This document shows positions 254-24,810 of a stretch of DNA of 30,827 nt, one piece after another; within the stretch, counting starts at the first letter, position 1, and each line of letters opens with the position of its first letter. A program made the translations under genes and the position numbers. The notes beneath the pieces are model-generated. The model was not told where the DNA came from. It saw only the letters and a list, made by a program, of their open reading frames with translations, and ran no database searches. The DNA lies in IMG/VR virus record IMGVR_UViG_2897375277_000004. One strand, 5' to 3'. The stretch comes from a virus (Duplodnaviria; Heunggongvirae; Uroviricota; Caudoviricetes).

Positions 254-282
254 ATTTTAGTTAATTTATCCTTACAAAACAA
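254..282 (-). promoter_or_regulatory. Candidate sigma70 promoter for ogr (-35 TTGTTT, 17-bp spacer, -10 TAAAAT on minus strand)
   Basis: Hexamers read directly on the minus strand about 35-65 nt upstream of the ogr ATG; not verified experimentally. Confidence 0.3.
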
Positions 283-300
283 ACACATAAAATAAAAACA

Positions 301-1464
301 TCACTCATCATCTTCTGTTTCGTACTCCACATCAGAAAGCCTGACCTCAAGCTCTAAGGACGTCGTGAAGCCGCTATTATTCAGAAAATGTGTCACCTTA
401 GTGATGGTCCAGTCCTGCTCGTCTATGACGCGCTTAAAGCCTGACACTTTGACCGGTGTTTCCGTGTAAATATCTGCCCGACCGGTAGCCAGGCTGATGG
501 AGAACTCCGCAACGCCCCGTTGCAGTTTATCCCACTTCGCCTGAGCGGCACGCATGGCCTGCGCTTTTGTGGCATATACCGTGGTCAGGGCAAAAACGTT
601 GTCAGCCTCACCGGCCATGTATTCACCTTCGCGCGCTTCCGGTACTTTTGGCGCTTTCTTCTGCGTGACCGGTTTCGCTTTCGGGTGCTCCAGTGCGCGC
701 AGGTGTTTCTCTTTCTTTTTGCGTTTCAGTTTTACCTTCTGCTTTTGCGGCTTCGGGTCTTTGGTGTGTAACCACTTTGCCGTTACGCCGGTGTAAGCTC
801 CACGGTCAGCAATCGCAAAATGATGACGGTCGCCGTCGCTGCGGGTGATGGTAATCTGCGGGATTTTTTTACCGCTGGCCGTCACCCCCTGCCCCGCTTT
901 GAGAAACAGCAGTTTTCCCATTTTTACCGACACCTCACCGCCGTTGCGCTCTGCAAGACGGGTCAGGAATTTCGCATCAGACTCCTGCGACTGGTCGATG
1001 TGCGGGATTTTAATTCCGGCCAGTGACGGAGCGACACTGGCTTCCAGCCTGTTACGGGAGGCAATCGCCTCAACAATCGCACCGAGCGTGGTGTCATGCC
1101 AGGAGCCTTCACGGCGGGAATTGAGCGTCCCGCGGAAATCTGCACTCCGGGCGCGGATGGTGACCACATCCGGCGCGCCCCGGTGTTCAACCTCATCAAC
1201 GGTAAATTTCCCTTTGCATACCAGGGCAAAACCTTTCCAGCCGATATACACCGTCAGGACAGCGCCACGAACCGGCAGCCCGACCTGCCCGTCGGCATCG
1301 TTCAGTTCAATATCAAGCTGGTCAGCCTCAAAGCCCCGGTTATCCGTCAGGGTCATGCTCATCAGACGGTCACTGATATTGCCGGTAATATCCCTGCTGT
1401 CGAGCATCAGCATGTAATCCGGCGTCAGCGTACTGCCTGCATCAAATGTCAGCGCATCCAGCAT
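301..1464 (-). CDS. D: Tail protein D (late control/tail formation)
   Basis: 387-aa ORF, same length and position as P2 gpD; lysine-rich central segment; start overlaps U stop. Confidence 0.92.
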   Translation of the reverse strand: MLDALTFDAGSTLTPDYMLMLDSRDITGNISDRLMSMTLTDNRGFEADQLDIELNDADGQVGLPVRGAVLTVYIGWKGFALVCKGKFTVDEVEHRGAPDVVTIRARSADFRGTLNSRREGSWHDTTLGAIVEAIASRNRLEASVAPSLAGIKIPHIDQSQESDAKFLTRLAERNGGEVSVKMGKLLFLKAGQGVTASGKKIPQITITRSDGDRHHFAIADRGAYTGVTAKWLHTKDPKPQKQKVKLKRKKKEKHLRALEHPKAKPVTQKKAPKVPEAREGEYMAGEADNVFALTTVYATKAQAMRAAQAKWDKLQRGVAEFSISLATGRADIYTETPVKVSGFKRVIDEQDWTITKVTHFLNNSGFTTSLELEVRLSDVEYETEDDE

Positions 1465-1957: not shown

Positions 1958-4405
1958 TTAACCGTCATGCATCATGCTGGCACGGGCGCGCGCACGTTTA
2001 TCCCGCTCGTATTTTTCGAGCGCATCCTGTAACTGGCGGTCAAGCTGTGTCCCCGGCGCAGTACCACCCGTCAGGCTGATGTGATATTCGTTTTTACTCT
2101 GGTCTACATAAGAGCGGCCAGCCGGTGCCGTGACCGGCTGATAAGCCTGATAGCCTGCATAAGAGCTGGTCGCCGGAATATAACCACCGGTGCCATACGT
2201 GGCGGCATTAGTCCTTGCGGCGGTCTGGTCAAGTGTGTCTGACTCTTTGTTGATAACACCGAGTTTTTCCAGTACCCAGTCAATACCACTGCGCAGTTTG
2301 TTGAACGCATTAAGCGGCAGCATCAGCGCATCAGCCAGTGCCTGCCCGAACATGACCCCCGTGTCACGGCAACTGTTCAGGGTGTCCTGAGTGGCTTTGA
2401 CCGGGGCAATCAGGTTTTTAAACCACTGCCACGCGGCCTGTAACTTTTCACCCAGCCAGTCAAACACCGGCTTAAGTGGCGTGAACAGTTCCCCCACCGG
2501 CGCAAATGCCACTTTCAGCCCTTCAACCACACCGCCAAAGAATGCGCTGACAGGCTCCCAGTATTTACGGATAAGCAACGCCCCGGCGACAATTGCGGCC
2601 ACCACGGCCACAACCGGCCAGCTAATCGCCCCGATGGCGGTCATAACAGCACTGCCAACCGTCGTGAAGACTGCCCCCATTGCGCCTGCTGCCGCGATGA
2701 TGGCATTGATGCCGGTGATAACCGGCCAGGCTACAAGACCAATGGCACCGATGATGCCAGTCAGCACCAGTGCGCCACCGGCAATGAGGCCGATGGTTGA
2801 CGCCAGTGATTTGTTTTTCTGTATCCAGCCGTCGAGTTTTAACACATACTTTGTGGCCATCTGCGTGAGCTTACGCAGCGCACCTTCCTGCTGGTCAAAC
2901 AGGTCAGTCCCTACCGCCTCATAAGCGGACTGAAACTCCTTAAAGTCACCGCCGAGGTTGTCCTGCATGATATTTACCAGCTCCGCGGCCTTCCCGTCTG
3001 AGGCTTTAAACGCAGCGGTCAGTTTGTCCAGCTTTCCGGTTGAGGCGGCAGTAATCAGCACGGCGGCGGCTGAGCTGGCCTCCTCCCCGAAAATGGTTTT
3101 CATGTATTCAGCCTGCTGGGCAGTACCGAGCCGGTTTTTCTCAAAACTGGCCTGCATTTCTTTCAGAATGGTAAATATTGGCCGGGTGTTTCCCTTGCTG
3201 TCTGAGGTTTTCACTCCAAGCTCTTTGAGAGCATCCCATGCTTTTCCCGTCGGTGCCTGCAGGCGGCTTAACACGGCACGGCTTCCCGTCCCCGCCATTG
3301 AGCCTGTGATTTTTGCATCATGCAGCGCCCCGACCATTGCGGCGGTTTCTTCAATGCTGACACCGGCATTTTTTGCCACAGGTGCGGCATAGGTCAGCGC
3401 ATCGCTCATGCCGTCAAAATCGGCGGCGGTTTTGTTCATCGTCATGGAGAGAACATCCCCGATATGAGCGACCTTATCGTTTGAAAGCTGAAAGGCGGAT
3501 TTCATCCCCATCAGCAGGGCGGCGTTTTCTTCCATCGTGCGGCGGTTCGCCAGCGCCATATTCAGCGTGACCGGCGTTGCCGCCTGAATGGCATCAACAT
3601 CCCCACCGGCTTTCGCAATAATAATCTGCGCACCGGCTGCATCATCTGCCGAGGCGGCGGTATTGTCGCCAAGCTGACGCGCCTGTTTGCGTAGTGCGGC
3701 CATTTCGGTGGAGTCTTTTGCCACTCCGAGCACAGCCTGTAATTCTGAGTTTTTCTGCGCAAACTCATAACCGGGCATCAGCAGCTTAACTCCGGCCATC
3801 GTTCCCGCAGCAGCAATCCCCACACCGGCAGCGCCCACTGAGGCCATATTTCCGGCCAGTTCCTTTCCGGCCTGATAACGCTGTTTGACTGCGTTAAGTT
3901 TTGCCTGTTGTGCACTGACACGCGCCAGCGCGTCACGCTGACGGTTAAGCTGTGCGGTGGTTTCACTGATACGGTTTTTCAGTCCCTGCTCATCATGTGC
4001 AAGATTGCGGGTATTAATTCCCACAACGGCCAGTTCCCGCTGCTGGCGTTTAACGGAATCCGTCAGGCGGTTATATTTCGCCTGTAAGTCCTCCGCCGCA
4101 CGCTTTGCTGATTCCAGCACTTTCGCCTGAGCACGGGTCGGTCGTTCGGTATTTTTAAACTGTGTGGCAAGGGCTTCGGCTTCCTGCCGCGCCTTTTCAA
4201 GTGCATGACCAGTCACGGCGAGCTGTGCACTGGTCTTGCGAAATCCCTCAATACGGGATGCCTGACCGTTCAGCTCGCGCAGTGATTTTTGTGTTTCCCG
4301 GATATCCCCCGACAGCGATTTGCTCGCTGTGCGGATGGATTTAAACGGGCGGGATGCCTGGTCAACAGCCCTGAGCAATACCTGTAATTTTACATTGTTA
4401 CTCAT
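1958..4405 (-). CDS. T: Tail tape measure protein T
   Basis: 815-aa ORF with coiled-coil N-terminal part and Gly/Ala-rich hydrophobic segments typical of tape measure proteins; same length as P2 gpT. Confidence 0.92.
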   Translation of the reverse strand: MSNNVKLQVLLRAVDQASRPFKSIRTASKSLSGDIRETQKSLRELNGQASRIEGFRKTSAQLAVTGHALEKARQEAEALATQFKNTERPTRAQAKVLESAKRAAEDLQAKYNRLTDSVKRQQRELAVVGINTRNLAHDEQGLKNRISETTAQLNRQRDALARVSAQQAKLNAVKQRYQAGKELAGNMASVGAAGVGIAAAGTMAGVKLLMPGYEFAQKNSELQAVLGVAKDSTEMAALRKQARQLGDNTAASADDAAGAQIIIAKAGGDVDAIQAATPVTLNMALANRRTMEENAALLMGMKSAFQLSNDKVAHIGDVLSMTMNKTAADFDGMSDALTYAAPVAKNAGVSIEETAAMVGALHDAKITGSMAGTGSRAVLSRLQAPTGKAWDALKELGVKTSDSKGNTRPIFTILKEMQASFEKNRLGTAQQAEYMKTIFGEEASSAAAVLITAASTGKLDKLTAAFKASDGKAAELVNIMQDNLGGDFKEFQSAYEAVGTDLFDQQEGALRKLTQMATKYVLKLDGWIQKNKSLASTIGLIAGGALVLTGIIGAIGLVAWPVITGINAIIAAAGAMGAVFTTVGSAVMTAIGAISWPVVAVVAAIVAGALLIRKYWEPVSAFFGGVVEGLKVAFAPVGELFTPLKPVFDWLGEKLQAAWQWFKNLIAPVKATQDTLNSCRDTGVMFGQALADALMLPLNAFNKLRSGIDWVLEKLGVINKESDTLDQTAARTNAATYGTGGYIPATSSYAGYQAYQPVTAPAGRSYVDQSKNEYHISLTGGTAPGTQLDRQLQDALEKYERDKRARARASMMHDG

Positions 4406-6604: not shown

Positions 6605-6903
6605 CCGTTTAACTCCGTGGTTAATGGGTGCAACTATTTTCTGTTGTGCAGAGCATGAGACGCTATTTGACCTGACTGGTCAGTGGATGAAACAACAGAT
6701 AAAGAAAAGGCGGACAATTCGCCCGCTATCCTGATTTGTACTCACTCATTTTCCAACTGACAGTTTACATAGCCCAAACGCTATCAAATCTGACAGCCTG
6801 CTTTGAGCGAACAGCAGACATTCATTAATATGTTTGTTAGGCTAACTTTATATGATGATTACTGAAATTGACCTTAGTTTGAGAATTGCATTAGGGGAAT
6901 AAA

Positions 6904-8010
6904 ATGGATGTCAATGAACTTAGAGAGTTACTTATCAAGTATAATGGCCTTCAAAATACTGATGAAGTCTATACGTTTTATTATGATGAAACGAATAACA
7001 TTCGAAAACTATATTTAAAAGATTCTGGCTTTAATGTTGTAAAGGCGGATAACTTCATCCTTGCAGGAATACTACACAAAGGGTTAAGCACTGACAGCGA
7101 TTATTCAACCCTGTTTCAAAAGCTTAATCTTCAAAAAAGTGTCAATGAGTTAAAACTCAGATATATCGCTAAGGGTAGTTTTTTGGATATGCTTAAATCC
7201 GATAAGCTTTTAATTATTCTAAACTGGCTTATCGAAAACAATTTCTACATCCATTATTTTAATCTTAATATCACATACTGGTCTATTATTGACATTGTTG
7301 ATTCTATTATTGGAGAGCTACATAATCCTTTTTATATCATGAACCACATGTCACTTAAGAGCGATTTTTATGAGCTTGCCAATAGCAATCCCGATGTTTT
7401 CCTGAATGCTCTACATAAATTTAACTACCCCGATATTCCAGAAGAAAAAGTTTATGAGTTTTGCCTCTGGCTTATCGATTTTACATGCATGCACAGTTGT
7501 ATGCTGCCAGATTTTCGAGCACACGCACTCGAAAATTTGGTTAAAGAATCTCTAAAAATCGAAGAACTACCGTTCATATCGGGATTTCATGGTCGAAAAC
7601 TGATCGATAGCTTTATGGTATTTTATTTAAGAAACTTGTATCTATTTAAAAATTCCGTTCACATATTTGATGAAGAAAAAAGCATTCAAGATGAAGTTAA
7701 AAACTTCCCGTTAACTGAAAATGGCATACCAATACAGAATCATGAATTCGTTAAATCCCACAACTCAGAGGCTATCCAACTATCTGATGTTATCGCAGGC
7801 TTTTTGGGTAAGTATTTTTCTTACTTAAAAGATGTAAATGACGAGCAATTAGCGATTGATAAGTCAGCCTTAACGAGCAAGCAATTTAAGACCCTTTCTG
7901 CGTTAAAACACATTATTGATGTTTCTGATGATGTTAGCAGAGGATTTTTTAATGAAGTTAGCAGCGAGGGAGAGCGACGGAGAAATAATCGTTTTTTACA
8001 TGGCGTATAA
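6904..8010 (+). CDS. Hypothetical cargo protein (368 aa) at the Z/fun variable locus; function unknown, candidate defence/exclusion gene
   Basis: Long ORF in visibly AT-rich DNA, opposite strand to all flanking late genes, good SD (AGGGG, 7 nt before ATG); motifs YYDET (aa 26-30) and IQLSDVIAG (aa 291-299). Confidence 0.7.
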   Translation: MDVNELRELLIKYNGLQNTDEVYTFYYDETNNIRKLYLKDSGFNVVKADNFILAGILHKGLSTDSDYSTLFQKLNLQKSVNELKLRYIAKGSFLDMLKSDKLLIILNWLIENNFYIHYFNLNITYWSIIDIVDSIIGELHNPFYIMNHMSLKSDFYELANSNPDVFLNALHKFNYPDIPEEKVYEFCLWLIDFTCMHSCMLPDFRAHALENLVKESLKIEELPFISGFHGRKLIDSFMVFYLRNLYLFKNSVHIFDEEKSIQDEVKNFPLTENGIPIQNHEFVKSHNSEAIQLSDVIAGFLGKYFSYLKDVNDEQLAIDKSALTSKQFKTLSALKHIIDVSDDVSRGFFNEVSSEGERRRNNRFLHGV

Positions 8011-8109
8011 TCGTAAGGGGTAAATTCTGCTTTTGGCACAGGGCGAACTGTCAGATTGGTTTTCACTCTGTGCCATAGATGTATAAACTCACATCAGAGC
8101 TTATACAAT

Positions 8110-8688
8110 TTATTGCGGCATTTCAGGCCATTCTATATTCGGAGCATCTTCCGGCTGAACTCGGTTAAGTAATACCCGGTATTTTTTCCATTTTGTCAGA
8201 CTTGATTTTTCTTCTTCGGTAGCCATATCTAAATCGACTGCATCCTGCAAAGTGGCAATAATTTCGCCTGCATATGCGGTCTGCTCTTTCTTCTGAAACT
8301 CAGCCTCCCTGACAAGCGCATCACGCTCTGCGCTCTCATCGTCCACCCACGCATTCCCGTTCCATTTCTGATAGTTGCCGGTCGGGGAAATTGTTGTTAC
8401 ATCAGATGGTAATGAGCCAAGTTCAGAAATATAAATGGCTGCTCCTGTTTTTGTTTCATAGACAGTCTTTCCGCGATGGTCTTCCACCAGCTCCCATTTC
8501 ATTTCATCTGCATTGAAAACGGCGGCAAAACCCACCGGAATATCTGGAGGTGCAATGTCTGTACTGTTTGCAGGAAGACCTGTATGCGGCGGAATATATG
8601 CGTCACTTTCGCCAATAAATTCATTGGTTCCATCAAGTAAATTGAAAACGCGGATGGTTTGTGCCTCTGCACTCATTCTGAAAGTCAT
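8110..8688 (-). CDS. G: Tail fibre assembly chaperone
   Basis: 192-aa ORF immediately downstream of tail fibre gene H, sharing a stop/start overlap; P2 gpG position but longer than P2 gpG (175 aa as recalled). Confidence 0.85.
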
Positions 8689-10505
8689 TATGCCAGCCTC
8701 ACAATATAGTTATACGCAACGTTTTTTACGGTGTTCTCTGAATTACCGGTGGCACTTACAGTGACGGTGTGACTATGTGCGCCAATCGCAATGGAATGGC
8801 TGTGAGCACCAATGCCAACCGTGTGATTATGCTGACCAATATCAACAGTATGGGCGTGCGCCCCGGCAGAGCTTGACACCTGGTTGTTTCCTGATACCTG
8901 TACGCGTTGTTTACCCCCGATGGAGTCACCACCGTAACGACCACCGACAGTGTGTGTATGCGCTCCCGTATTGTTTGTCGTTTTTGTGCCGTGGTTAAAC
9001 GTGCTGACCGTTTTTGTCCCGTAATCAAACGAACTGGTTGTTTTCGTCCCTAAATCCGTACTGGATGCACTGGCACTGTGGGTATGTGATTTAATTCCGT
9101 CCTGTTCCTGTGATAATACGGCGCGACCACTGGCGGGTTTGCCCTTGATTGTCCAGCCGCGCATATCTGGAATCACCCCTGACGGATAAGCTACTGCAAG
9201 CAGGGGATAGGCTGCTTTATCAAAAGTCTGCCCCTGCATCATGGCATAGCCTGTAGGTACTGAATCAGAAGGCCACGGGATTGGAGCACCTACCGGAAAT
9301 GAATCCTGCGGTGTCCATGGTGTCCAGCCACCCGTTGAATACTGGCTGCGGGTATAGCTTCTTGATGTGTTATAGACATAGTAAATTTGTGTTATTCCGG
9401 CATTTCTAAGCACAACCAGAGTACCTGCAAGATTCTCCGGGTATTTCAGCGATGCGCTTGTATTCGCATTCAGTGGCTGATGGTACAGTCCCGGCGTTTT
9501 GTAATTATCCAGATTCTGGTTTGCACCAATCCCAATACTCTGACCGTTAAAAATATCCTGCGATGTAATATTGACATCATTGGTCAGCGGTTTGCCATTG
9601 ACCTTACGCTCACCAGGAACGCGCCCGTTTGCATTGTCATTCGCGGCTTTAACCGCTTTTGGAGTCGCGGCAAGTGTTTCAGAATCGCTGTTAGTGGCGC
9701 TGCTTAACTGAACAATCCCTTTTCGTGCCGTGGTGGCGTCCTGTGCAGTGTATTTGCCATTAGCAAGGTCATATGCTGTCTTAACCGCCTTTGGCGTTGC
9801 TGCGAGCGTCTCAGATTCGCTGTTGATGGCACTACTTAGCTGAACAAGACCTTTTCGCCCCGTGCTGGCGTCCTGTGCGGTATATTTCCCGTTAGCAAGG
9901 TCATAGGCGTCCTTTACCGCTTTCGGCGTTGCGGCCAGTGTTTCAGACGTGCTGTTGGTCGCGCTGCTTAACTGAGTAAAACCTTTTGCGGTCAGCGAGG
10001 CGTCCGGGTGACGTCGTGACTGTTCGTGCTCTGCAATTTTGTCATCAACGTAATCCTGCGTCGCCATCACCGTTGTGGTGTCAATGGTCAGTTCCACTGA
10101 GGCCACACTGCTGACGATGATGACCATGCGGCAGGTCTGCGAACGCCCTGAGCCTTCGGCAAGGGCTGGCTTATAACTTTCGGCCATGTTCGCCACGGCA
10201 ATTAACGTTCCCGCATCATCGTACAGGCCAAGCTCACGCATCCAGAAACCGCCCACCTCCGGCGGGATAACCAGCTCTGCGATAATATAATTACTGTGTC
10301 GATTGTCCTGACTGATTTTATTCAGGGTATGTCGCCAGACCTCATTAACAAGTTTTGTCTGTCCGGCATCCGGGACAGGCAATTTACCACCACCATCCCC
10401 GACGGCCATCGTGGTAATGTTGACCTTCCGCCCTCCCGGCGCGGTTGCCGCTGCCAGCTTTGCTGCACCGGCAGTGGTGATAACGGTTTTGAATTTTGTG
10501 CTCAT
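8688..10505 (-). CDS. H: Tail fibre protein H
   Basis: 605-aa ORF; N-terminal part P2 H-like, three tandem ~44-aa [12 protein letters not shown] repeats, C-terminal part with six HxH motifs; shorter than P2 H (669 aa as recalled). Confidence 0.9.
9620..10000. repeat. Three tandem imperfect ~132-bp repeats inside H (encode ...[33 protein letters not shown]...)
   Basis: Repeat visible both in DNA and in the translated protein (aa ~170-296). Confidence 0.7.
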
Positions 10506-10515
10506 TATTCCTCAC

Positions 10516-11046
10516 TTATCCGGGGTAAACCGTAATTACATCGCCGTCGTAAGCCACACCACCGGCGAACAGGTGGCCGGGAATGTCCTGGGTAATGTTC
10601 AGACCAATAAGGTGACGGCTTGCAGGTTTGGCATCAGCAATCAGCCTCTCCATTTCCAGATACATTTCCTCTGTGATGCCGCTTTCCAGTACACCAATAT
10701 CAAGCCGGAAGGTGCCGGGCGGGTCACTGTTTTCCCACCACTCCGTCACGTTGATGAGATAGCCGAGCGGCTCCACCACACGCCGGATTGCGCCGATAGT
10801 GCCTTTATGACAGTGGATGAAATAGGCATCGCGGATAACGGCGCGTTTTGTCGCTTCCGGCCACTTTTCATCCCACCTGTCGACCGAAAACGCCCACGCC
10901 AGCCACGGCAGCAGATTTGCCGGGCAGGTGTCCGGGTTCCACAGCTCACGAATACTGACCGGTGTTTTTTCAATTTCCGCACAGGCTTTTGCGGCGGCGA
11001 CCTCAAGCGGTGATGAGCCGGTCGGCAGCAGTCGCGAATCACTCAT
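10516..11046 (-). CDS. I: Baseplate assembly protein I
   Basis: 176-aa ORF; P2 gpI length and position; overlaps J by 8 nt. Confidence 0.9.
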   Translation of the reverse strand: MSDSRLLPTGSSPLEVAAAKACAEIEKTPVSIRELWNPDTCPANLLPWLAWAFSVDRWDEKWPEATKRAVIRDAYFIHCHKGTIGAIRRVVEPLGYLINVTEWWENSDPPGTFRLDIGVLESGITEEMYLEMERLIADAKPASRHLIGLNITQDIPGHLFAGGVAYDGDVITVYPG

Positions 11047-22602: not shown

Positions 22603-24810
22603 ATGGAACTTAGTCTAAAAAATGTAACAAGCTACGACAAAAATAAATATACGAAAATATCCCTCGAAAAAAGAATAAATATCCTTTACGGGCAAAACGG
22701 AGCTGGGAAATCTACCATATCAAATTTTTTCTATAATCCAGCAGACGATGACTATAGGGACTGCCGCTGCACAAACATTAATAACTATCGTCCATTGGTT
22801 TATAATACAAAGTTCATTGAAGACAACTTCTTTGATAAAGATGTTCAAAAAGGGATTTTTACATTAAGCAAAGAAAATACCGAGATCGAAAAAGAGATAA
22901 GTAAGAAAAGAGAAATAGTTAAAACATTAAAAATAAAACTAGAGGCAACAAAAACAAATTATCAAAAAATTAAAGACCGCAATCATGATGCAGAAACAAG
23001 TTGTACTGAATCAATATGGTTAAATACCGAATACATAAGAAACTCTGATGTCAACTCATTAATGGCAGGGTACCTTAAGAATAAAAGAAACCTTTTCACA
23101 AAGGTAAAGTCTTCTATTAGATTATCTGATATAGATTTAAATCAATTATTAACTGACTACAGAGAGTTATTGAATCATAAAAACACCACCATACAAACAA
23201 TATCTCCATATAATCCTTATCCTATTTCTTTTGATGATGAAAATTTATTAAAGACTCCTGTCATTGATTCTAGCAATAGCTATCTATCAGAAACAATCAA
23301 AAAGCTTCAGAATCTCGATTGGGTTAAAAAAGGTAAAGAAAATTATTTAGTTGGCGACATTTGCCCTTTTTGTCAAAAAGAAACCATTGATGATAAATTC
23401 ACAGAGGCGCTCGAGCAAATTTTTGATGAAAGCTACGCTCAGAAAATAACATCAATTGAAAAATTAAAATATATTTATGAATTAACTACTCAAGAACAAC
23501 TTCAATTACTAAAAACACAGTTAAATGACTGTACAGCAATCTCAATTGAAGAAAGAAAAACTAGTCTTGCTCACATTTCTTCCCTTGAGAAAATGCTAAA
23601 AAGTAACATTGAGTTAATTAATAACAAGATACAAAACCCGTCACTCAGCGTAACTCTTGATAAAGATAAAGATATTGAGGAATCTCTTCTAAAAGACATA
23701 AAACAATATAACTCTAGAATTAATGACCTTAATGAAAAGGTAAAACAATTTAACCTTACTCAAGATAAAATAAAAAATCAGTTTTGGGGAGCATTGAGAA
23801 ACTACTGCAATACAGACTTTGAAGTTTTAGAGAAAATTCAAGCCGAAAACGACATCATTATCAAGAGTCTCGAAGAAAGCATTGATTCTATTAACAAAGA
23901 AATCAAACACACTGATGATGAAATAAAGGAATTAAGAAATAAAACATCCAATATCGACGCAACAATCTCCTCGATAAACTCAAAATTAAAAAACCTTGGC
24001 ATTACCTGTTTCTACATTGATAAACATCCAACCATAAAAAATAGTTTCGTTATAGTTCGCTCAGATAATACACCAAGTAAAAATGTATATAGATCTCTTA
24101 GCGAAGGTGAAAAAACTCTCATTACATTTCTCTATTTTATTGAATATTGTAAGGGACAAACAAACACAGATGAATTCGACAACCGAGACAGTTTAATCGT
24201 CATTGACGATCCTATTTCAAGTCTCTCTCAGAACTATATCTATGATATAGCATCGATGATTCACTATGACATTTTCACTTCTGCTAATAAAGTGATAATC
24301 CTCACTCATAATCTATATTTTTTTCATGAGCTAATAAAGTTAGCTCCAATTTCAGAAAGGAAATTCAATAGCACCTATCAGCTTTTTAGAATAACAAAAA
24401 ACCTACATAGTTCTTTTTCTAACATCAGCAGAGATAGTTTGCAAAATGAATATCAATCTTTATGGCAAATACTCAAGGATGCCAGAGATGGAAAAGTTCA
24501 CAATGTAGTTATCCCTAATACAATGAGAAACATCTTAGAATATTACTTTGCATTTGTTCATAAAACTAACGAGTTACAAGAAGAATTGAACAAGCTTGCA
24601 CAAAATGAAAGCAATAGTAATTTTAAGGCTTTCTATAGATATATAAATAGAGGTTCACACTCAGATTCGATAAACATAACAGATATGGGTGAAATAACAC
24701 CCGACATATACATCACACAATTTAAAGAGATATTTAGACTTATGGGAGATATTTCACATTTTAATAAAATGTATGAAGAGAAAAAGAATATAGAAGACAC
24801 TACCGCTTAG
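22603..24810 (+). CDS. Cargo protein (735 aa): Rad50/SMC-like ABC ATPase with coiled coil, CxxC hook and C-terminal extra domain; candidate defence effector
   Basis: Walker A GQNGAGKST (aa 30-38), long Lys/Glu-rich predicted coiled coil, CPFC (aa 254-257), signature-like LSEGEK (aa 499-504), Walker B LIVIDD (aa 531-536), H-loop LTHN (aa 567-570), ~165-aa C-terminal region; very AT-rich. Confidence 0.85.
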   Translation: MELSLKNVTSYDKNKYTKISLEKRINILYGQNGAGKSTISNFFYNPADDDYRDCRCTNINNYRPLVYNTKFIEDNFFDKDVQKGIFTLSKENTEIEKEISKKREIVKTLKIKLEATKTNYQKIKDRNHDAETSCTESIWLNTEYIRNSDVNSLMAGYLKNKRNLFTKVKSSIRLSDIDLNQLLTDYRELLNHKNTTIQTISPYNPYPISFDDENLLKTPVIDSSNSYLSETIKKLQNLDWVKKGKENYLVGDICPFCQKETIDDKFTEALEQIFDESYAQKITSIEKLKYIYELTTQEQLQLLKTQLNDCTAISIEERKTSLAHISSLEKMLKSNIELINNKIQNPSLSVTLDKDKDIEESLLKDIKQYNSRINDLNEKVKQFNLTQDKIKNQFWGALRNYCNTDFEVLEKIQAENDIIIKSLEESIDSINKEIKHTDDEIKELRNKTSNIDATISSINSKLKNLGITCFYIDKHPTIKNSFVIVRSDNTPSKNVYRSLSEGEKTLITFLYFIEYCKGQTNTDEFDNRDSLIVIDDPISSLSQNYIYDIASMIHYDIFTSANKVIILTHNLYFFHELIKLAPISERKFNSTYQLFRITKNLHSSFSNISRDSLQNEYQSLWQILKDARDGKVHNVVIPNTMRNILEYYFAFVHKTNELQEELNKLAQNESNSNFKAFYRYINRGSHSDSINITDMGEITPDIYITQFKEIFRLMGDISHFNKMYEEKKNIEDTTA

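Follow-up and report, generated by a model that had tools for sequence, protein, structure and literature searches.

Gene H of a P2-like prophage: a mosaic tail-fibre gene with a predicted gp37/Stf-type needle tip

Results

The window, i.e. the whole stretch of 30,827 nucleotides that was analysed, carries a tail fibre gene H that is flanked by gene I (Tail_P2_I, 10516..11046) on one side and by gene G on the other, the start codon of G overlapping the stop codon of H. The coordinates of H, its parts and G are collected in Table 1. The order V-W-J-I-H-G places H at the same operon position as in P2, and synteny is also shared with the Salmonella phage STYP1. With PF12571 and a late-operon site flanked by I and G, the gene corresponds to a Peduovirus gpH. 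Pfam analysis of H further gave three copies of PF03406, PF07484 and PF03335. Judged from its sequence, H is a mosaic tail-fibre gene of the ordinary kind in a P2-like (Peduovirus) prophage, composed of a P2 part (aa 1-~294), a knob-like part (aa ~295-401) and a tip of the T4 gp37/lambda Stf type (aa 402-605).

Table 1. Features of the H-G locus in the window.
Feature	Coordinates	Strand	Basis
Gene H, tail fibre protein	8688..10505 (stop codon included)	minus	605-aa ORF
P2-type N-terminal domain (aa 1-151)	10053..10505	minus	Pfam Phage_tail_fib PF12571, E=5e-58
Three tandem 44-aa Phage_fiber_2 repeats (aa 170-301), shaft part	9603..9998	minus	Tandem Repeats Finder and PF03406
Knob-like beta domain (aa 323-400), between shaft and collar	9306..9539	minus	AF2 monomer, Foldseek
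Collar domain, first part (aa 402-472)	9090..9302	minus	Pfam Collar PF07484, E=1e-9
Ascending needle stem (aa 473-518; HTH474, HTH516, degenerate site H504)	8952..9089	minus	2XGF alignment
Apex or 'head' (aa 519-545), presumed receptor-contacting loop	8871..8951	minus	equivalent to T4 932-959
237-nt patch (H nt 1474-1710, aa 492-570)	8796..9032	minus	96.2% DNA identity, SEP1 tail-fibre gene
Descending needle stem (aa 546-588; HAH550, HNH559, HSH568, HSH577)	8742..8870	minus	2XGF alignment
C-terminal strand back to collar (aa 589-605)	8691..8741	minus	alignment to T4 1010-1026
Gene G, lambda Tfa-type tail-fibre assembly chaperone (predicted), 192 aa	8110..8688	minus	Pfam Caudo_TAP PF02413, E=1e-39

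The front part of H is that of P2. N-terminal domain and Phage_fiber_2 repeats are 83% identical to P2 gpH over about aa 1-288 (blastp), and at the DNA level the front end matches P2 H nt 1-728 with 93% identity. By this relationship, the N-terminal domain is predicted to anchor the fibre at the baseplate. Beyond aa 288 no similarity between the two proteins was returned by blastp, so that the C-terminal receptor-binding part of Peduovirus gpH has no counterpart here. P2 H contains two repeats instead of three, lacks the Collar domain, is unrelated past aa ~290 and, when scanned for HxH motifs, contained none. H can thus be ruled out to be P2's own sequence. Comparison with further relatives delimits the modules. 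In both protein and DNA alignments only aa 1-~294 are common to P2 and its relatives; positions 871-2177 of the query, the tip excluded, are common to other E. coli prophages; and G forms with the tip a single block (query 1-1190), found in other prophages and in phage P24A7b, which ends at H aa ~402.

The three tandem repeats of about 44 aa proposed by the first-pass annotation were recovered by two methods. Tandem Repeats Finder reported 9649..9987 with a period of 132 nt, 2.6 copies, 79% matches and a score of 431, and Pfam Phage_fiber_2 (PF03406, a family of tandem ~42-aa units) matched three stretches of H with E=1.9e-61. The units comprise aa 170-213, 214-257 and 258-301 and share 36/44, 29/44 and 27/44 residues in pairwise comparison; the third aligns with residues 98-189 of the solved phage Mu fibre S (5YVQ/8JU3). 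The variation in repeat number that had been suggested for related prophages is real as well, P2-type H proteins carrying 2, 3 or 4 copies. According to these sequence comparisons the repeats are a standard feature of P2 H and nothing special to the gene investigated here.

For structural analysis, aa 289-605 were modelled by AF2 as a monomer with a 50-sequence alignment. The knob-like domain was the sole confident part (pLDDT about 90). In a Foldseek search of the PDB it resembled the R1/R2 pyocin fibres 6CT8, 6CL5 and 6CL6 (E=1e-4 to 1e-3), and phmmer gave weak matches of H to the same chains. Collar and needle reached a pLDDT of 40-60 only, which is expected when an obligate intertwined trimer is modelled as a monomer, and the prediction is therefore uninformative for the tip. 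Here the top Foldseek match was 2XGF with a TM of 0.17-0.24; this match is driven by sequence and adds nothing to the alignments.

Residues 401-605 of H match PDB 2XGF, the T4 gp37 tip (chain residues 27-242), with E=6.2e-75 in phmmer, and blastp gives 62% identity to T4 gp37 812-1026 over 217 columns. Pfam hits to Collar and Phage_fiber support the homology of the tip. Lambda orf-314 (69-314) is likewise 62% identical by blastp and 74% identical in the MAFFT alignment. The collar (aa 402-472) shares 81% of its residues with T4 and 85% with orf-314 and, using the published domain limits of gp37, which include a tip subdomain 932-959 (PMC6957217), is equivalent to D10 811-881. Collar, proximal stem and C-terminus taken together are 71-88% identical to T4 and lambda. 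By alignment, the chain reverses at a 27-aa apex and its C-terminus returns to the collar, T4 1010-1026 being part of D10; nearly all full-length homologues likewise end in …NYIVRLA or NYLVRLA.

Similar to T4 gp37/gp38, the order is collar, needle and apex with a reversing chain and a chaperone gene directly downstream. In contrast to T4, the stem of H is ~4-5 residues shorter per strand and has one HxH motif fewer, and the fibre body is P2-type instead of that of the 1026-aa gp37. The nearest classical homologue of tip and chaperone is the lambda pair Stf (orf-401/orf-314) and Tfa (orf-194): gene order is alike, with an orf-314 homologue followed by an adjacent Tfa homologue. Lambda Stf differs by eight HxH motifs and a far larger apex insert, and its N-terminal part has only the Phage_fiber_2 repeat region in common with H (36-40% identity). 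The earlier proposal of a T-even-type tip on a P2 fibre is supported for the graft itself by the match to 2XGF. The label 'T-even' is too narrow: by sequence, the module equals the lambda Stf C-terminus plus Tfa and is shared by phages of the P2-like, lambdoid, T4-like, Felix O1-like and other types. The apex, moreover, is Felix O1-like.

Six HxH motifs were found in the tip, HTH474, HTH516, HAH550, HNH559, HSH568 and HSH577 (DNA 8769..9086), exactly those listed by the first-pass annotation and in the same order. Their surroundings, described there as rich in Gly, Thr and Val, consist of G/T/S/V/H/A to 71% (aa 470-581). The regular spacing that had been claimed applies to the last four motifs, which lie 9 residues apart, but not to the preceding intervals of 42 and 34 residues. 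None of 20,000 shuffles yielded six HxH motifs, the mean being 0.50 for the whole protein and 0.75 for aa 401-605 alone. In an alignment of 50 homologues with 61-96% identity, all twelve histidines of the motifs are invariant or at least 90% conserved, in contrast to the lone H504. Among the 120 best homologues, six motifs occur in 88, seven in 23 and five in 3.

T4 gp37 holds seven irons by HxH motifs (PMC6957217). Six of these seven sites are paired in H (474/883, 516/929, 550/966, 559/980, 568/989 and 577/998). Of the seventh, H915/H917, only H504 is left, which pairs with H915. MAFFT and HMMER differ in the T4 ascending partner of HTH516; we adopted the HMMER pairing with 929, since under it the glycine-rich loops of the apex stay aligned and the two strands are shortened by equal amounts. 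For T4 gp12 an HxH site able to hold Zn instead of Fe has been described (PMC6116203).

Along its full length (191 aa aligned), the predicted chaperone G shares 66% of its residues with lambda Tfa, compared to 28% identity with T4 gp38; its last 72 aa are similar to the Mu chaperone U (5YVQ_B, E=8e-9). The similarity to P2 G (33%) is confined to the C-terminal part and, as had been noted before, G is longer with 192 aa compared to 175 aa in P2. On this sequence evidence G is not P2-like; a gene of the gp38/Tfa type lies directly downstream of the tip.

Across the homologues no part of the tip varies more than the apex, as would be expected of a specificity determinant. Over the 27 apex residues H reaches only 11-15% identity with T4 and 33% with lambda, compared to 81% with ORF77 of Felix O1 and 96% with Salmonella phage SEP1, a virulent Felix O1-like phage. 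By blastn and pairwise alignment the 237-nt patch listed in Table 1 was found in the tail-fibre gene of the latter, and tblastn gave 98.7% identity between H aa 489-563 and SEP1. Within SEP1 the patch has a GC content of 49.8% compared to 38.8% for the remainder of that gene. Apex and distal stem (aa 489-563) are thus shared with Felixounavirus fibres (73% for Felix O1 ORF77, 99% for SEP1 QXN67034). This homology does not extend over the whole tip, since the collar is only 21% and the C-terminus 38% identical, and the fibre bodies with their gp37_trimer repeats are unrelated to H. A Tfa homologue next to the fibre genes of Felix O1 and SEP1 was not found within the loci inspected. For Felixounavirus fibres, and for the LTF and STF of Bas63 in a cryo-EM study, the same gp37-like tip of collar, needle and head with 6-7 HxH motifs is reported, six of them in the shortest needle (PMC12609058). 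Felix O1 possesses two fibres, either of which may be the one that binds LPS.

Discussion

Taken together, the homologies, the order of the domains, the conserved motifs and the boundaries of the modules make it very probable that H forms a modular P2-like fibre with a trimeric, metal-binding needle tip and a receptor-binding apex of the Felix O1 type, with LPS as the most likely receptor and G as the chaperone. The tip chain would leave the collar, run out along the needle, turn at the small apex and return to the collar, and by homology with T4 gp37 three such chains are expected to intertwine. Each HxH motif would then contribute six histidines from the three chains around one metal ion, which is Fe2+ in T4. 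As each motif, taken from all three chains, represents one site, six axial ions are predicted for the H fibre, one fewer than in T4. As a homologue of lambda Tfa and T4 gp38, G should assist the tip in folding and trimerisation.

Receptor binding is expected to take place at the apex, the distal end of the fibre; in T4 the receptor-binding residues are located in the tip subdomain 932-959 (PMC6957217). Since the apex of H is Felix O1-like and not T4-like, the receptor is probably not the T4 combination of OmpC and E. coli B LPS. The LPS (core) of Salmonella or related enterobacteria appears most likely instead, and the Felix O1 type of the apex is the one ground for naming it.

The same fold and metal needle could also serve an outer-membrane protein such as OmpC in place of LPS, which we consider unlikely. 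T4 gp37 is linked to OmpC (PMC6957217). Lambda Stf, with the same tip fold, is reportedly linked to it as well. The high identity of collar, proximal stem and C-terminus to T4 and lambda is in favour of such a receptor, as are the strong binding of OmpC by the T4 needle and the apex loop GGDSIGG, which is in register with NGTGVGG of T4 including the critical G938, G942 and G943 (PMC6957217). The apex as a whole, however, follows Felix O1 far more closely than T4 or lambda, and Felix O1 reportedly targets LPS with no protein receptor, its host recognition being termed elusive (PMC8594841). Moreover, one and the same apex surface of T4 handles both LPS and OmpC (PMC6957217), so that the fold alone does not decide the ligand.

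Alternatively, host specificity might depend chiefly on the knob-like domain (aa 323-400), with the HxH needle acting as a spacer or secondary contact. The confidently predicted fold is reminiscent of the R1/R2 pyocin knobs, and in pyocins Knob2 belongs to the regions of highest diversity and was proposed as a determinant of the killing spectrum (PMC6116203). The domain is also separately exchangeable, as the other E. coli prophages that share query 871-2177 without the tip illustrate. In T4, on the other hand, apex mutations abolish receptor binding and plaque formation (PMC6957217), and in the homologues of H it is the apex that varies most within the tip; a leading role of the knob therefore seems quite improbable. 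That the HxH motifs and the repeats lack a specific role and arose by chance from the composition of a low-complexity fibre rich in Gly, Ser and Thr, as the residue content could suggest, has a negligible probability, since the shuffles (even in the His-rich C-terminal 205 aa), the conservation of the motif histidines as opposed to H504 and the one-to-one alignment with crystallographic iron sites in 2XGF rule out chance and low complexity as the source of the motifs.

For the needle tip with its Felix O1-type apex, the SEP1 patch opens up a more tentative extension. Distal stem and apex (aa ~489-563) may constitute a portable specificity cassette that is swapped within the needle independently of collar and chaperone and that moved recently between temperate P2-like prophages and a virulent Salmonella phage of the Felix O1-like group. 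We regard this as possible, with the odds somewhat against it. A patch of 50% GC inside a 39%-GC gene of SEP1 suggests the direction from prophage to virulent phage. If the proposal is true, recognition of the Felix O1 type (LPS) would reside in the 75-residue insert alone; such an insert would represent a minimal unit for retargeting fibres of the P2, lambda or T4 type and provide a handle on the receptor-binding site of Felix O1.

The value of the analysis lies mostly in annotation: a fibre of P2 type whose needle tip is of the gp37/Stf type, with six predicted metal sites and a Tfa-type chaperone, for which the host range of P2 should not be presumed. The module boundaries at aa ~294, ~402 and ~489-563 may be useful for the engineering of P2, pyocin or lambda fibres, and the apex shared with Felix O1-like phages offers a testable guess at an LPS receptor. 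Mosaicism of tail fibres has reportedly been recognised since the work on the P2 H/G sequences in the early 1990s, and our knowledge of it is unchanged by H.

These features are not rare, and the tip type is known from thousands of enterobacterial phage genes: aa 289-605 of H match 3,547 database proteins, and at least 80% of the 205-aa tip is covered in 304 phage records. The Gifsy-1 Stf paper, consulted with regard to the receptor of this tip type, contains no mention of gp37, HxH or Tfa. Among the relatives, STYP1 (KX833211) carries an H that is 95% and a G that is 97% identical over the full length; all six HxH motifs and the apex are the same as here. Its published description speaks merely of 'novel tail fiber genes' and holds no analysis of the tip. 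The entire late region is 97% identical to the window, the two differing in the gap between G and FI, which measures only ~128 bp in STYP1 compared to a low-GC insert of 1.5 kb in the window.

Results and Discussion

The tail fibre H of this genome, which overall is P2-like (Peduovirus), is a string of modules with a known relative for every one, and it is of a well-known kind in which a gp37-type tip, predicted to be a metal needle, is carried on a P2 body. Across the late region, identity to Salmonella phage STYP1, fiAA91-ss and further P2 relatives is about 97%; in STYP1, deposited in 2016, H is 95% and the assembly chaperone G 97% identical to the proteins described here. Two contigs are known to encode an identical H protein; one of them, 31 kb long and from a public sequencing run, has the same neighbouring genes. 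A search with H aa 289-605 at a cut-off of E<=1e-10 returned 3,547 database proteins, the best 120 of which stem from Escherichia, Citrobacter, Hafnia, Enterobacter, Salmonella and other genera and include 42 with a P2-type N-terminus. By tblastn the 205-aa tip was found in 497 phage records (304 with at least 80% coverage), comprising Tequatrovirus, lambdoid, P2-like and Felix O1-like phages, phage 9g and others.

Features of the fibre locus and of the low-GC islands (nucleotide positions refer to the window, aa positions to H)
Feature	Position	Strand	Remarks
Tail_P2_I gene	10516..11046		before H
H	8688..10505	minus	605-aa ORF
G	8110..8688	minus	192-aa ORF, after H
P2-type N-terminal domain	aa 1-151		PF12571, E=5e-58
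Three 44-aa units	aa 170-213, 214-257, 258-301		27-36/44 residues shared pairwise
Collar	aa 402-472 and 589-605		T4 scheme
Collar, identity	aa 401-472		T4 81%, lambda 85%, Felix O1 21%, SEP1 21%
Ascending stem	aa 473-518		T4 scheme
Apex	aa 519-545		T4 scheme; identity T4 11-15%, lambda 33%, Felix O1 81%, SEP1 96%
Descending stem	aa 546-588		T4 scheme
C-terminus, identity	aa 564-605		T4 74%, lambda 71%, Felix O1 38%, SEP1 38%
237-nt patch	8796-9032		SEP1 (L006) 3010-3246, tail-fibre gene of a virulent Felix O1-like Salmonella phage
DUF3800 protein	6904..8010	plus	368 aa; in the 6727-8110 insert
AAA_13 ATPase	22603..24810	plus	735 aa; second low-GC island, about 30% GC

The front end is that of P2, with 83% identity between H aa 1-288 and P2 H 1-286 and 93% identical DNA over nt 1-728 of H. 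The three tandem repeats of about 44 aa noted in the first-pass annotation were recovered by Tandem Repeats Finder (9649..9987, period 132 nt, 2.6 copies), by three matches to Pfam Phage_fiber_2 (E=1.9e-61) and by comparison of the units, one of which can be aligned to the solved Mu fibre S (5YVQ/8JU3). Since they belong to the P2-type part and P2 H has Phage_fiber_2 units in common with it, the repeats are not peculiar to this fibre: in P2-type fibres they are usual and vary in copy number. The suggested variation in copy number is supported, as P2-type homologues contain 0-3 repeats when counted with a motif regex. Compared to three units here, canonical P2 H (NC_001895, 669 aa) has two, and the 736-aa H of NC_070905 (locus L004, 1172-3382), which is labelled Peduovirus P2, has four together with a gp37_C domain; H thus differs in length and repeats even between records named P2.

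At the other end, H aa 401-605 match the sequence of the T4 gp37 tip crystal structure (2XGF) with E=6.2e-75. The identity is 62% to gp37 812-1026 and likewise 62% to lambda orf-314 69-314, and Pfam Collar matches at aa 406-453. This homology supports in substance the earlier proposal that a P2 fibre carries a metal needle of gp37 type, a tip unlike that of P2. Six HxH motifs, the same and in the same order as first listed, are located at aa 474, 516, 550, 559, 568 and 577; their reported regular spacing holds for the last four, which follow every 9 residues, but the earlier ones are uneven. Six motifs were not reached in any of 20,000 shuffles, which averaged 0.5 motifs when the entire protein was shuffled and 0.75 when only its last, His-rich 205 aa were. 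Across 50 homologues of 61-96% identity, conservation of each of the 12 HxH histidines is complete or at least 90%; no such conservation is seen for the lone H504.

For T4 gp37, the D10 collar (811-881 and 1010-1026), stem (882-931 and 960-1009) and tip (932-959) have been delimited, with seven iron ions in HxH sites (PMC6957217). HMMER pairs the H motifs, in order, with T4 883, 929, 966, 980, 989 and 998 and the remaining T4 site, 915/917, with the single H504, so by homology the H fibre should hold six ions. In comparison to T4, both needle strands are consistently shortened: the inter-motif span is 42 residues against 46 in the ascending strand (4 fewer) and 27 against 32 in the descending one (5 fewer). 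The best 120 homologues, too, most often have six HxH motifs (88, with seven in 23 and five in 3), and the Bas63 cryo-EM paper describes gp37-like tips with 6-7 motifs, six in the shortest needle (PMC12609058). A trimeric needle with bound metal is predicted from homology at 62-66% identity. The lone histidine (window 8994-8996) lies in FNHGTK at the position of the second T4 iron site (H915-x-H917), where most homologues have FDYGTK; it appears to be the remnant of a metal site that gave way to a copy of the DYGTK repeat.

In the AF2 model, computed as monomer only, the tip reaches a pLDDT of 40-60, and its Foldseek comparison with 2XGF (TM 0.17-0.24) brought no gain beyond sequence. The sole high-confidence part, aa 323-400 (pLDDT about 90), resembles the knob domains described for R1/R2 pyocin fibres (Foldseek E=1e-4 to 1e-3; PMC6116203).

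G contains a Caudo_TAP domain (E=1e-39). Its identity amounts to 66% with lambda Tfa across the full length, to 28% with T4 gp38 and to 33% with P2 G in the C-terminal part only; the final 72 residues of G also match the Mu chaperone U of 5YVQ. The probable cognate chaperone of the tip is therefore non-P2 and, as previously stated, longer than in P2 (192 vs 175 aa). Its chaperone activity is predicted, likewise by homology at 62-66% identity. G and the tip travel together: as one block of ~85% identity (query nt 1-1190), G plus H from aa ~402 on recur in phage P24A7b and many E. coli prophages. What P2-type relatives have in common with H is confined to aa 1-~294. The closest classical relative of the tip module is therefore lambda Stf-Tfa, T4 gp37-gp38 being more distant in the same family. 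The designation as T-even type is thus correct as to gp37-type homology, but the tip is nearer to lambda Stf/Tfa and its apex, by sequence, Felix O1-like (Table).

The SEP1 patch corresponds to H nt 1474-1710 with 96.2% identical DNA. With a GC content of 49.8% against 38.8% in the remainder of the SEP1 gene, it is presumably foreign there and at home in the enterobacterial prophage pool, which suggests a recent transfer from a prophage-type fibre to the virulent phage. T4 residues for LPS and OmpC binding are located in the apex (PMC6957217), and the target of Felix O1 was reported as LPS, not protein, by a mechanism called elusive (PMC8594841). Because the apex is Felix O1-like, LPS of Salmonella or of related hosts is hypothesized as the probable receptor, unlike those of T4 and P2. 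In Felix O1-like phages (SEP1, L006 632-737; a further locus, L007 641-860), another fibre gene lies upstream, and its tip is likewise similar to the H needle DNA (73-81% identity), in agreement with the two gp37-like tips that were reported in Bas63 for its long and its short fibres.

Two low-GC islands encode candidate defence genes. The insert at 6727-8110 (about 34-40% GC) lies between G and the operon terminator/FI promoter and starts directly after a conserved terminator hairpin (6708-6726). STYP1 has merely ~128 bp at this site, and P2 has fun(Z) at the equivalent one. Among the candidate defence families of PADLOC, PDC-S51 is matched by the DUF3800 protein (E=1e-106) and PDC-S06 by the AAA_13 ATPase (E=3e-250). 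Likeness to STYP1 and other P2 relatives stops at about 22,396, shortly before the second island.
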